DNA of 6,064 nucleotides. Source: Escherichia coli (lineage in GTDB: Bacteria > Pseudomonadota > Gammaproteobacteria > Enterobacterales > Enterobacteriaceae). Location of the stretch: assembly GCF_003334385.1 (NCBI RefSeq), contig NZ_QOWN01000078.1; one strand, written 5' to 3'. This document shows, in pieces, positions 1 to 3,000 of this stretch (position 1 is the first letter of the stretch; each line of letters begins with the position of its first letter). A program made the position numbers.

Positions 1-3000
1 CAACGTCGCTCAGTACAGAGGGATTTGAAAGCTGTTTCTCCATCTGGTTAAAGGCATTGATGTATGCCTCTTTGAACCGGGCAGCACGTTTACCCGTGAA
101 ACCCATAGCAAGAAACGCAAAACCGTCTCGTGTGATTTGATAGCAAGGGAGCTTGCGTGTACCACCGTTCGGTTGATTTACCGAAATCGATGTCTCCGCA
201 AAATTGCGGGCACAAAACTCAGGGGAACAATCCAGAGTGCGGATCTTTTTCAGCACATCGTCGTGACGCTTGGAGAAGAAGTTGGCAACAGCCAAAGAAG
301 TGGTAACGGCCTGGCCGTTGTCAATGGTGATTTCAGGTTGAGTGAGGGCTGGGATCGTAGCCATGATGGCAGCCTCCGTTGACAGTGAAAAACTTCCACC
401 ACCGGAAACGCCAATTTCACTGGTGGTGAACTGGACGGGGTTGGCGTAACCGGCGTCAACGGAGACCGGCGCACCTTTCGGTGCCCCCGCCCAGCCCACC
501 ATAATCTGGATGTGAGCAAATGCGGACGATAAAAAAGACGCTGGCGCGTCATACATCGCCGTTGACAATTTCAGGACGCCAATCCCGGCACCCGCTTTAT
601 AAGGTGCCTGAGCAGTGTAACGTCCCGGAATTGCAGAATCAATATGCAGGTGGTCCTTCACACTCAACAAAATCACGCCTGAATTTCCACAAAGGACTAA
701 AGCACTCATGCGGGTAGTCTTTGCGAAGATAGATAACGCGCTGTGTTTCTGGCTCCCAACGAATAACATGAACATAAAGTCCTCTTCCGTCACGAAACCA
801 GCGGTTAAGTTCCTGCACAACTCGCCCCCCACAGTCAGGTAAAGTTCTCTGTGGTTACTTACAGCCAGGTGATTTGGTAATCTGCATTCATGCCGTAACA
901 ACAGGTGTTCAGCGACGCTGACCACCAGCTGTTGCGACAAACGGTTATTTGCCGTTAAACTGTTCATGCGTTAGTTTCTCCACAGACACAAAACGCCACG
1001 ACGCCCGGAGCTGCACACTCGCGGGCGTCACTCTTTTCTGGAGCGCAAAAGATTTTGTAGACCAGTGCTGCATGCTCCTGGAGCTTCGAAATTGACAGAT
1101 ACAACTCATCATTAATTGCTGTCTGCTCGTGTGGCTCCACTACCCCATCTTCGATTGCCGAACGAATCTGCTTTGAGTAACTCCCGATCTGTTCGATGAC
1201 TTCCAGCAGGCGCTGGTTTATATCGGCGTTCTCTACTTCCTCAATTTCAGGAAGCGATACAAACACCCCACCAGCAGACTGTGCGACAGCATCCGCAATG
1301 TAGTGAGTGCCAGCCGCGCGCTGTAAAATCATTGCCCATCCCAGCGGGAAAATCTGATCGCCATCTGCACGAAGGCGGTTGAATAAAGCGTTCTCTGTTA
1401 CATCCAGCCACTCAGCAGCTTCAGCGTAACCCCCCGGCAACGCCGCGATAGTTTTTCTGACAGCTTTCACGTACCACTCAGGCTGTTTTTCCACTTTCCA
1501 GTGATGATTACCCACGGCTTACCTCCTGTTCCTGTGGTTTAAACCCATTCTGGTTTTGGCTAGATTGAAAACGTGCCGGATAAAGAATCTGCATTTCGCT
1601 GATTTCACCCTTAAAAAAATTGGCCAGACGTTCTGCAAGATCGATAGATGGAATTTGTTCCAGTCTTTCAATACGACTCAGCGTCGCTGGATTGACCTGA
1701 ACGCCCGCAGCAACATGCTGCAAAGTAAATCCGTGCGCCTTACGCACATTCCGTAATGGTGATTGCATATAACCTCCACATATTGCGTGATGAGCATATT
1801 ATTTCACGCAAATATTTTGCGCAAGTTGATTTGCTTAACGCGCAATAAAGAAATGTAATAAACGCATGAACATAGGAAACCGAGTCAGACAACTTCGCCA
1901 GGCGAAGAACATGAAAATCGCCGATCTCGCTGAAGCAATAGGAGTGGATGCGGCGAATATCTCACGCCTGGAAACAGGTAAGCAGAAACAATTCACTGAA
2001 CAAGCCCTGAGTAATATTGCCAGGAGCTTAGGTGTTGATATTGCTGATCTCTTTACCTCAGACGTCAAAAGTAATACTGTATGTAAAAACAGTATTAGTG
2101 AGGATGTTGCGCAGGTGAAGGATGTATTCCGTATTGAAATGCTGGATGTCAGTGCCAGTGCGGGAAATGGCCTTATCCAGGGCGGTGATGTCATTGATGT
2201 GATTCATGCCATTGAATACAGAACTGATAATGCTGTATCGATGTTTGGCGGACGGCCAGCCAATCACATTAAAGTTATCAACGTTCGTGGGGACAGTATG
2301 TGTCCAACCATTGAGCCAGGAGATCTCATCTTCGTTGATATCAGTATCAATCAGTTTGATGGGGATGGTATATATGTATTTGGTTTTGATGATAAAATTT
2401 ACGTCAAACGACTGCAAATGATACCTGATAAACTGCTGGTAATTTCTGATAATCAGATTTACCGCGAATGGGGAATTACCAGCGAAAACGAACATCGGTT
2501 TATGGTCTTTGGAAAGGTCTTAATCAGTCAGTCACAAACCCTTAAGCGACACAATTAACCCCTACCTCAACATCAATTAGCCACCAGAAGGTGGCTTTTC
2601 ATTACCCACCAAATTGCATATCTCGCAATAAAAACACTTGCATAATGCGCAACTTCATTTTATCTTTCTTTCCAGACATACAAACAAGGTACTAACAAAA
2701 TTTGGTTGTAACACGGCGTATGGCACATGCGTCGTTAGCGGTCTGGTGACGTTAAAGGGGACAATCCACTCCTTGCTCGGGCAAACAAACCAGGTAGCCG
2801 GAATGTGCAAGTCAATGATGATGCTGATAAGACGCCTAACCAGCGTGGCGATTCGGTTTGACGCCTGGGAAGAGACCAGGGTGCAACGATGAGGGCATTT
2901 ATGGAACCGCGACAAAGTGTGGTGCCGTAACTGGCTAAGTGCTCTCAGCGTTGTGGTGAATGCGCAGGCTGATGCGCGAAAGACATTGCAGCTATTGCGG

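Follow-up and report, generated by a model that had tools for sequence, protein, structure and literature searches.

A predicted lambda-type switch with 15-bp TTGC-N7-GCAA operators in the immunity region of an mEp460-type prophage

In phages 434 and P22, Cro is homologous to the N-terminal domain of the repressor, and these two helix-turn-helix (HTH) domains act on the same short dyads. The 434 half-sites have the form ACAA-N6-TTGT. In HK022, the operators of CI have been characterised experimentally (Carlson & Little 1993, as cited in PMC8053113). HK022 OL and OR are separated by about 700 bp, with cI the sole gene in that interval, and an extra operator is found about 300 bp downstream of OR (PMC8053113); OL–OR looping has also been shown. 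In Fels-1, the repressor FsoR is cleaved during mitomycin C induction, and lexA3 did not block induction (PMC3121763).

Here the immunity region of an mEp460-type lambdoid prophage was examined within the window, the whole 6,064-nt stretch of Escherichia coli DNA that was analysed. The region probably holds a lambda-type genetic switch in which the predicted cI and Cro operators are 15-bp dyads of the form TTGC(G)-N-(C)GCAA. No description of the TTGC-N7-GCAA motif string or of the ST64B and SfII operators was found in the open-access literature searched.

Gene layout and regulatory proteins

The window DNA is 99% identical to phage mEp460, and the same immunity module is present in Stx2a phages, SfII and ST64B (74% DNA identity for ST64B). 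The genes run in the order cII-like, cro, cI, terminator and early-left genes, as in lambdoid immunity regions, and all genes beyond PL are on the + strand. The cI repressor gene (1866–2558, + strand, 230 aa) was recognised from the ORF list, Pfam and PHROG repressor families. Divergent from it is a cro-like gene (1508–1768, − strand, 86 aa) encoding an XRE-type HTH protein, identified from the ORF list and PHROG. The cro ATG at 1768 (−) and the cI ATG at 1866 are separated by a 97-bp gap that is exactly the interval 1769–1865, and the cro Shine-Dalgarno (SD) sequence GGAGG is the complement of 1774–1778. The same divergent repressor and cro genes around a short operator/promoter gap are annotated in SfII, Stx2a phages and PhiR phages. 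A terminator scan placed an intrinsic terminator 3' of cI (2579–2596, + strand), which is annotated in SfII and conserved as GCCACC..GGTGGCTTTT. A structured leader of 610 nt lies downstream of PL, where an N gene is not evident; six 13-14-nt strings from this leader were all absent from the RS218 supplements (sRNA-17). Since the cII-like gene resembles YmfL, the e14 prophage of K-12 (ymfK/ymfT) was considered as a possible relative already characterised, but the e14 repressor and operators are unrelated.

The window cI is 100% identical to the mEp460 repressor. It combines an N-terminal Cro/C1-type HTH (Pfam HTH_3/HTH_26/HTH_31, residues 3–64) with a C-terminal S24 LexA-like autocleavage domain (Peptidase_S24, residues 104–218), and its translation contains the autocleavage motifs Ala99-Gly100, Ser144 (GDSM) and Lys181 (VKRL). 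A PDB match of cI to a 434-derived domain was weak (E 2e-4), and the structure search found no close solved structure for cI or Cro. BLASTP of cI against Cro gave nothing useful; homology emerged only by profile-profile comparison, which matched Cro to the cI N-terminal domain with a probability of 98.4% (E 4.8e-15) and aligned the recognition helices, NPATLSRIE in Cro with DAANISRLE in cI. In ENT47670 the cI and Cro helices are almost identical. Judged from these profiles, the two HTH domains are homologous and their recognition helices near-identical, suggesting that one type of site is enough for both proteins and that neither a third regulator nor a second binding mode is necessary.

Predicted operators and promoters

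Three exact TTGC-N7-GCAA sites listed in an earlier note on this DNA, TTGCTTAACGCGCAA (1831–1845), TTGCATATCTCGCAA (2614–2628) and TTGCATAATGCGCAA (2638–2652), are all present, as are its 29-bp palindrome TTGCGTGA-N13-TCACGCAA (1783–1811) and its 8-bp palindrome TTGCGCAA (1817–1824). Only 0.33 exact sites are expected in the window and 0/200 shuffles reached 3. In the 44.5-kb mEp460 genome N7 is the sole over-represented spacing, with 6 copies against 0–3 for each of the other spacings from 0 to 24; 3/6 copies fall in the immunity region. TTGC/GCAA tetramers are likewise frequent in 1769–1865 (6 against 1.18 expected, Poisson P = 0.0014). The window holds 17 perfect 8-bp palindromes against 24 expected, so that one such palindrome is not unusual per se, and 8 inverted repeats of the 8+13+8 form against 1.8 expected, the 29-bp palindrome being one of these. 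An N21 spacing also arises trivially, from TTGC at 1817 with GCAA at 1842.

A weight matrix trained only on sites of ST64B, Klebsiella phages, Flotzy and phiNP ranked four window sites highest: 2638–2652 (20.9), 2614–2628 (18.2), 1831–1845 (14.9) and 1783–1797 (12.9). When the window's own four sites were included in the matrix, the same four led in the whole mEp460 genome and the next match scored 12.5. Their offsets from the cI ATG are fixed (−83, −35, about +748 and +772), as seen across 8 phage lineages and in 29 different IMG/VR contexts. A protein-guided IMG/VR scan returned 80 loci with cI all at least 99% identical, hence without diversity, so more divergent loci were taken from a phage database and by scanning for the DNA pattern of the conserved central block. 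The latter gave 95 contexts, of which about two thirds were dropped for want of a cI-like ORF, followed by L097 and L207, which were false matches. In the alignment the motif occupies equivalent positions in SfII, ST64B, Klebsiella phages, Flotzy and phiNP, with invariant half-sites and variable centres, and where near-identical prophages differ, the change is nearly always at a site centre or an outermost position. The ENT47670/Yersinia-type phages have DVGNLSRLERG in place of DAANISRLETG in the cI helix, and ATGCG..CGCAT in place of TTGCG..CGCAA in the operators. The 15-bp TTGC-N7-GCAA dyad is thus the only form supported as a predicted operator. A common repressor, as had been proposed, is the natural reading of the enrichment, of the positional conservation among relatives with cI 68–100% identical and of the overlap with three putative promoters. 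Sites of this kind occur both in the cI/cro gap (OR) and just past the cI terminator (OL), again as had been noted.

At OR, the OR1-like predicted operator TTGCGTGATGAGCAT (1783–1797, TTGC-N7-GCAT) ranks fourth by the leave-out matrix. All relatives carry it at −83, where TTGCG and GCAT never vary but the centre does, and it overlaps the final 2 bp of the putative PR −10, TAATAT (1796–1801, − strand), plus the putative PR start, expected at about 1788–1790. The putative PR −35, TTGCGC (1819–1824, − strand), lies within the TTGCGCAA palindrome at 17-bp spacing from TAATAT. It is weak against the sigma-70 consensus (3/6) and invariant in eight aligned lineages; the 17-bp pairing of TAAYAT with TTGCGC is kept in ST64B, Klebsiella phages, Flotzy and phiNP. 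The OR3-like predicted operator (1831–1845) is at −35 in all relatives, also with a variable centre, and its left half is the putative PRM −35 (TTGCTT, 1831–1836). The putative PRM −10, TGTAAT (1854–1859, + strand), is invariant in aligned lineages. It ends 6 nt upstream of the cI ATG and no purine-rich SD precedes 1866; the cI mRNA would then be leaderless, like the one from lambda PRM, with its start expected at 1866 (+/-1). By the matrix, the PRM-proximal site scores at least as high as the PR-proximal site, the reverse of lambda OR1 > OR3.

Between them, the OR2-like position AAATATTTTGCGCAA (1810–1824, −56) contains the 8-bp palindrome, and only its right half, TGCGCAA, matches. This half-site scores 10.5, equal to the best half-site anywhere, while the full position scores −0.9. 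At −56 the Klebsiella phages have a near-full site, TAGCGAATTGCGCAA (15.4), and Flotzy and phiNP have TTACGACTTGCGCAA (9.9). An alternative register at 1817–1831 (−49) is a 9/10 site only in ENT47670/Yersinia-type phages. The middle operator of the window lineage has no second half-site in either register (−0.9 and −0.1); its OR shows two full sites with a single half-site in the middle. Full middle sites exist in Klebsiella-type (−56) and ENT47670-type (−49) phages. OR in the window lineage may work with only two full operators. The everted repeat CGCAAATATTTTGCG (1807–1821) lies midway between OR1 and OR3 and was tried as OR2, but was rejected for its score of −32 and its lack of conservation.

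At OL, the promoter-distal predicted operator (2614–2628) has equivalents 52–55 bp past the cI stop in relatives, and its centre differs among otherwise near-identical prophages. The promoter-proximal predicted operator (2638–2652), the top match in the window, follows the distal one by 22–24 bp in relatives. Its left half is the putative PL −35 (TTGCAT, 2638–2643), and 17 bp after it lies the putative PL −10, TATCTT (2661–2666, + strand), reading rightward into the early-left genes, with a start expected at about 2673. TATCTT is kept in SfII, Klebsiella phages, Flotzy and phiNP; ST64B has TAATTT. A promoter scan of the window called none of PR, PRM and PL. Its sole OR match (+ strand, TCCACA-16-TATTAT, 1775–1802) was rejected as PRM because its −35 is the cro SD read on the opposite strand and is unconserved. 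The three promoter assignments are read from sequence. High-scoring dyads of the same type, four in all, occur at OR and again at OL, and overlap hexamers kept at 17-bp spacing.

In the switch that we propose, the full OR site at 1783–1797 would lie over the start and −10 of PR, the promoter that transcribes cro on the − strand, and the one at 1831–1845 would lie over the −35 of PRM, the promoter for cI maintenance. TTGCGCAA would serve as both the PR −35 hexamer and the lone consensus half-site of a degenerate OR2, and the two full OL sites, 24 bp apart, would cover and flank the PL −35. Because the −35 hexamer is an operator half-site, TTGCnn, at all three promoters, bound repressor is expected to occlude RNA polymerase directly. 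cI and Cro would read common half-sites through their homologous HTH domains, with only relative affinities differing; presumably the same operators are bound by both in a different affinity order. cI would repress PR and PL and auto-limit PRM, Cro would shut PRM, and prophage induction would follow from RecA-stimulated cI autocleavage. We infer site occupancy by cI and Cro, cooperativity and possible OR–OL looping from this arrangement.

Alternative readings of the half-sites

The earlier note had suggested that half-sites spaced 0, 7 and 21 bp apart could be three kinds of site, which cI and Cro engage in distinct ways or which a third regulator occupies. All three arrangements do exist in the window, TTGCGCAA is invariant across lineages, and OR as a whole is a 32-nt imperfect dyad centred at 1814. 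We consider this reading very unlikely, since only N7 is conserved, N0 and N21 are unenriched in the phage genome and 8-bp palindromes are not above chance. The 29-bp palindrome as such is unconserved. Its left arm belongs to the conserved OR1 site TTGC-N7-GCAT, but its right arm TCACGCAA (1804–1811) appears in the alignment as a stray, lineage-specific GCAA half-site, diverged in ST64B (TCATACAG), Klebsiella phages (CTACGCTA) and Flotzy (TGTGTAGT), absent in phiNP and imperfect even in SfII; one SfII-type contig (L128) carries a mutated copy. TTGCGCAA is an invariant element but not a separate site class, as it coincides with the putative PR −35 and the OR2 half-site. The 0-bp and 21-bp spacings are by-products of overlap between sites and promoters; the odd spacings visible in the raw sequence trace to half-sites that double as −35 hexamers. 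With near-identical recognition helices in cI and Cro, one site type would suffice, and neither distinct modes nor a third regulator need be invoked.

It is also conceivable that the two proteins divide the sites, with cI on the N7 dyads and Cro, or a cI tetramer, on a distinct larger or asymmetric site in the central block TTGCGCAAGTTGATTTGC (1817–1834). The 18-bp block TTGCGCAAGTTGMTTTGC is invariant in aligned lineages, even where the flanks diverged, and exceeds the −35 hexamer and adjoining half-sites, leaving 1825–1830 unaccounted for as either promoter hexamer or half-site. The core TGCGCAAG..G.TTTGC is kept even in ENT47670/Yersinia phages, in which cI identity is 50%. Such a division is nonetheless unlikely. 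The Cro helix nearly equals the cI helix, predicting equal half-site preference, the block in ENT47670-type phages is an ordinary 9/10 dyad, ATGCGCAAGGCGCTT, abutting OR3, and an ordinary dyad of the Klebsiella phages ends in the same GCGCAA. More improbable than either is that the repeats are host-factor sites or chance. Single palindromes of such size are common, and the everted repeat ACGCAAA-TAT-TTTGCG (1805–1821) may resemble the PurR consensus, ACGCAAACGTTTGCGT, as expected of a PurR/LacI-family box. The repeat has three central bases (TAT) rather than the CG pair at the middle of a 16-bp PurR-type dyad, however, and is unconserved, being TACAGCAAACTTGCG in ST64B and different again in Klebsiella phages and Flotzy. 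The N7 dyads co-vary with the phage repressor helix and travel with cI across host genera, and chance is excluded for them by their enrichment in the window and the mEp460 genome together with the leave-out matrix ranking. The shared N7 dyad is accordingly the reading that we retain.

A candidate auxiliary operator, GTGCGCCTTACGCAC (1733–1747), lies in cro codons 8–12 and is the sixth matrix match in the window (9.3), with the core TGCG-N5-CGCA intact and mismatches in the outer positions. All close relatives have it at −133, and Flotzy and phiNP carry a perfect version, TTGCGATTTTCGCAA. With the protein and its codon usage taken into account, the chance of such a score is 0.0007–0.005 in Flotzy, phiNP, a Klebsiella phage and ST64B, but only 0.075 in the window. 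A conserved LexA box was also observed within the cI gene, at 2075–2094, and the Fels-1 repressor gene has the same box. A product comprising only the C-terminal domain, from an in-frame GTG at 2115 that is 3' of the LexA box, was discounted as its SD and start are unconserved. Tentatively, and with some doubt, the widespread immunity type of mEp460, SfII, ST64B, some Stx2a phages and Klebsiella and Citrobacter prophages might be other than a simple copy of the lambda switch. OR would then work through two full operators together with half-sites that stand back to back and are fused to the PR −35; cro would contain a fourth operator, 50 bp past OR1 and held by rare synonymous codons; and host LexA would bind a box in the cI linker-coding sequence. 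If LexA were bound within cI, SOS would reach the switch twice, through cI autocleavage and through LexA release inside the cI transcription unit.

Comparison with described phage switches

The predicted dyad would define the immunity specificity of Stx2a-converting phages, the Shigella serotype-converting phage SfII, Salmonella ST64B and Klebsiella/Citrobacter prophages. With the operator known, homo- and hetero-immune prophages become predictable, the promoters governing Stx-phage induction can be located, and a further orthogonal repressor/operator pair is offered for synthetic circuits.

The Fels-1 and HK022 repressors appear to differ from the window cI in operator specificity. Fels-1 FsoR is 52% identical to the window cI and shares its gene layout, but the Fels-1 intergenic sequence has no TTGC-N7-GCAA dyads, suggesting that FsoR specificity differs despite a similar helix. 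HK022 CI is 43% identical over residues 19–228, an alignment that leaves out residues 1–18. Its cI/cro gap carries 15-bp TGAAC-N5-GTTCA dyads (TGAACTTATGGTTCA), and HK022 thus resembles the window in its 15-bp, 5-N5-5 dyad geometry, in its OL–OR distance and in an extra operator comparable to the cro-internal candidate, although that candidate lies 50 bp from OR1 rather than about 300 bp downstream of OR. The half-sites differ (TGAAC in HK022, TTGCG in the window), so the two phages should be heteroimmune. The homologous HTH domains of cI and Cro recall 434 and P22, with different half-sites and site lengths.

Like lambda, the window has cI and cro diverging from an OR with several operators that overlap putative PR and PRM, and a second cluster at the early-left promoter. 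The repressor again joins an HTH to an S24 autocleavage domain, the cI message from PRM apparently lacks a leader, and both proteins presumably read the same operators. The window dyads measure 15 bp rather than the 17 bp of lambda sites, and Cro is an XRE-type HTH protein paralogous to the cI N-terminal domain rather than a lambda Cro fold. OR and OL are separated by about 780 bp with only cI between them, against 2.3 kb in lambda, and the OR centre-to-centre distances are 27 and 21 bp, against 24 and 23. There are two sites at OL, only a half-site remains of the middle OR site in this lineage, and PL is followed by the structured leader with no evident N gene. The locus represents a new specificity within a known kind of operator; its logic is that of lambda and HK022, and the result is incremental.

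The immunity region of an mEp460-type prophage

The 6,064-bp window comes from an mEp460-type lambdoid prophage and represents its immunity region. Over positions 900-2720, identity is 99.1% to phage mEp460, 96-99% to several E. coli phages (among them Stx2a_1447 and WGPS2, both Stx2-converting), 90% to Shigella phage SfII and 74% to Salmonella phage ST64B. The minus strand carries a Rha/antirepressor-like gene truncated by the window's left end (2-364), a cII/YmfL-like gene (964-1515) and a cro-like HTH gene of 86 aa (1508-1768). On the plus strand are cI (1866-2558, 230 aa) and early genes from 3281, and an intrinsic terminator lies at 2579-2596. 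The cI product contains a Cro/C1-type HTH domain (residues 3-64) and a Peptidase_S24 domain (residues 104-218), and its translation shows the Ala-Gly, Ser and Lys motifs required for RecA-stimulated self-cleavage.

The database records of mEp460, Stx2a_1447 and phiNP start the repressor at an internal ATG (Met16), with loss of the first HTH helix; the mEp460 annotation (5012-5659) corresponds to window 1911-2558. The SfII and ST64B records use the upstream ATG at window 1866. Conservation supports this upstream ATG as the probable cI start.

Probable operators and promoters flanking cI

The earlier note described TTGC...GCAA half-sites at 1769-1865, which is precisely the cro/cI intergenic gap (OR), and downstream of cI (OL), and every sequence it listed was found where it had placed it. 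Exact 15-bp TTGC-N7-GCAA dyads occur three times in the window (1831-1845, 2614-2628 and 2638-2652) compared with 0.33 expected, and at least three occurred in 0/200 shuffles. With one mismatch permitted, TTGCGTGATGAGCAT at 1783-1797 also qualifies; it forms the left portion of the 29-bp palindrome listed in the note. A weight matrix trained only on sites from ST64B, Klebsiella phages, Flotzy and phiNP gave as its top four matches in the window 2638-2652 (score 20.9), 2614-2628 (18.2), 1831-1845 (14.9) and 1783-1797 (12.9). With the window's own four sites added to the matrix, the same four ranked first across the mEp460 genome, where the next match scored 12.5.

Conservation was examined in SfII, ST64B, Stx2a_1447, Klebsiella phages Kp4874-4, P7641 and Kp4882-3, Escherichia phage Flotzy and Citrobacter phage phiNP, with cI 68-96% identical. 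Every close relative has sites at -83, -35, about +748 and about +772 from the cI ATG, with invariant TTGC(G) and (C)GCAA arms and variable centres. A DNA-pattern scan of IMG/VR with the conserved central block recovered 29 more distinct contexts with the same layout. Among near-identical prophages, polymorphisms fall nearly all in site centres or outermost positions, the signature expected for real dyad operators. Adjacent site centres lie 27 and 21 bp apart in OR and 22-24 bp apart in OL of window-, Klebsiella- and Flotzy-type relatives. A distant set (ENT47670, a Yersinia phage and Fels-1) has cI proteins 48-52% identical, and in ENT47670-type phages the OL distance is 15 bp. Enrichment, matrix ranking and fixed offsets in relatives bear out the proposal of a common operator type at OR and OL.

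Three promoters were predicted from sequence and conservation. Exactly 17 bp separate TTGCGC (1824 to 1819, minus strand) from a conserved TAATAT/TAACAT, which makes TTGCGC the likely -35 of PR, the promoter into cro, with TAATAT (1801 to 1796) as the -10 and a predicted start near 1789; the Shine-Dalgarno sequence GGAGG precedes the cro ATG. On the plus strand the putative cI maintenance promoter PRM has TTGCTT (1831-1836) and TGTAAT (1854-1859), and the putative PL, directed towards the early-left genes, has TTGCAT (2638-2643) and TATCTT (2661-2666). The hexamers and 17-bp spacings of all three are kept in relatives. A generic promoter scan of the window missed all three, since TTG is the only part of each -35 that matches. 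Since the PRM -10 ends 6 nt 5' of the cI ATG and there is no Shine-Dalgarno sequence, cI is probably transcribed as a leaderless message, like that from lambda PRM. In all three predicted promoters the operator half-site would double as the -35 element, so that bound repressor would exclude polymerase; this doubling would also explain the high TTGC frequency in the region.

The earlier note had suggested that half-site spacings of 0, 7 and 21 bp could reflect distinct binding modes or binding by a third regulator. Across the 44.5-kb mEp460 genome, however, only N7 is over-represented (6 copies, 3/6 within the immunity region, versus 0-3 for other spacings from 0 to 24). The 29-bp palindrome is one of 8 inverted repeats of the 8+13+8 form in the window, versus 1.8 expected. 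It consists of the left half of the 1783-1797 operator, OR1 (TTGCGTGA), and a stray GCAA half-site at 1804-1811. This right arm reads TCATACAG in ST64B, CTACGCTA in Klebsiella phages and TGTGTAGT in Flotzy, and the palindrome is already imperfect in SfII, so it is peculiar to this lineage and does not form a site class. What is conserved at 1783-1797 is TTGC-N7-GCAT, whose final T (for A), fixed in 8/8 aligned lineages, is shared with a base of the predicted PR -10. The 21-bp spacing is also a trivial product of TTGC at 1817 and GCAA at 1842.

The 8-bp palindrome TTGCGCAA (1817-1824) is unremarkable as a palindrome (17 of this length in the window versus 24 expected). It is nevertheless invariant among relatives, because the likely PR -35 on the minus strand overlaps a plus-strand half-site, TGCGCAA, which has the top half-site score of the region (10.5). 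A near-complete dyad ends here, in GCGCAA, in Klebsiella phages (TAGCGAATTGCGCAA, score 15.4), and one starts here in ENT47670-type phages (ATGCGCAAGGCGCTT, 9/10 core positions). In the lineages of the window, SfII and ST64B, neither register has its partner half, leaving the middle OR operator as a half-site only. The invariant block TTGCGCAAGTTGMTTTGC includes positions 1825-1830, which the proposed elements do not account for.

Cro and the cI N-terminal domain are homologous (hhalign probability 98.4%, E 4.8e-15), with aligned recognition helices DAANISRLETGKQ in cI and NPATLSRIERLEQ in Cro. Those of ENT47670 are almost identical to each other (DVGNLSRLERGMQ and DVGNLSRIERGMQ). In the ENT47670/Yersinia group both proteins' helices differ from the window's, and the operators are ATGCG..CGCAT versus TTGCG..CGCAA. 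Such joint variation links the dyads to proteins encoded by the phage itself and makes a third regulator or a separate class of Cro sites unnecessary. The proposal of several binding modes is not supported, N7 being the only spacing that is enriched and conserved.

Additional candidate elements in cro, cI and the leaders

A further dyad, GTGCGCCTTACGCAC (core TGCG-N5-CGCA), lies at 1733-1747 in cro codons 8-12; Flotzy and phiNP have a perfect operator there. Rare synonymous codons maintain the dyad in relatives (chance of such a score 0.0007-0.005 given protein and codon usage); the window's own copy is marginal (0.075 on the same basis). Lying 50 bp downstream of OR1, it may serve as an auxiliary operator and recalls HK022's extra operator downstream of OR. 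On the minus strand the palindrome was also picked up as a terminator-like hairpin.

A near-consensus LexA box, TACTGTATGTAAAAACAGTA (CTGT-N8-ACAG), lies at 2075-2094 in the linker-coding part of cI (codons 70-76). Its position is retained in Stx2a_1447, SfII, ST64B, Klebsiella phages, ENT47670 and Fels-1, as well as in 22/24 distinct IMG/VR cI variants. The encoded residues vary (NTVCKNS, TTVHINS, DTVDTYS, DTVNKYS), which leaves only the codons spelling the box fixed. Neither an overlapping promoter nor any mention of the box in the literature searched was found. Possible roles are a LexA roadblock or an additional SOS input to cI expression.

The approximately 610 nt after the PL-like promoter (2667-3280, plus strand) lack a convincing ORF and have an unusually stable fold (z = -4.2). 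Within them a long hairpin at 3139-3235 (25-bp basal stem, MFE -49 kcal/mol, z = -6.3) is 85-93% conserved in SfII, ST64B, phiNP and Flotzy; its flanks have diverged, a few of its pairs are compensatory and two phages carry an apical insertion. It has no Rfam match. Because the mEp460-type group is reported to lack N (PMC3851460), the hairpin is possibly a put-like antiterminator or an sRNA. sRNA-17, a 193-nt ArcA-modulated sRNA of E. coli K1 RS218, is reported to be intergenic in an mEp460-like prophage (PMC7719688); six 13-14-nt strings from the window leader are absent from that paper's supplements. The motif ACAGGCAGGA(C/A)GCCCACGAAGTAGCC is repeated across the early-left leaders of ST64B, Flotzy and phiNP and also occurs downstream of ymfK in K-12 prophage e14, whose immunity is unrelated; the window leader has at most a shortened version.

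Minus-strand Rfam matches above the gathering score to C4 antisense RNA (419-506, 81 bits) and isrK (531-607, 62 bits), and a weak a1/b1 target match (568-620), lie just upstream of the Rha/antirepressor-like ORF in the PR operon. This arrangement suggests P1/P7 immI-style antisense control of an antirepressor on top of the cI/Cro switch.

Relation to known repressors

No earlier description of a TTGC-N7-GCAA operator was found in the open-access literature searched. The window cI is 52% identical to FsoR of Fels-1, which is cleaved upon mitomycin induction (PMC3121763), and 43% identical to HK022 CI. HK022 has 15-bp TGAAC-N5-GTTCA dyads in the gap equivalent to the window's cI/cro gap, and its OL and OR, about 700 bp apart, have been demonstrated to loop (PMC8053113). 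The system described here is a new specificity inside the well-known lambdoid kind of repressor and operator.
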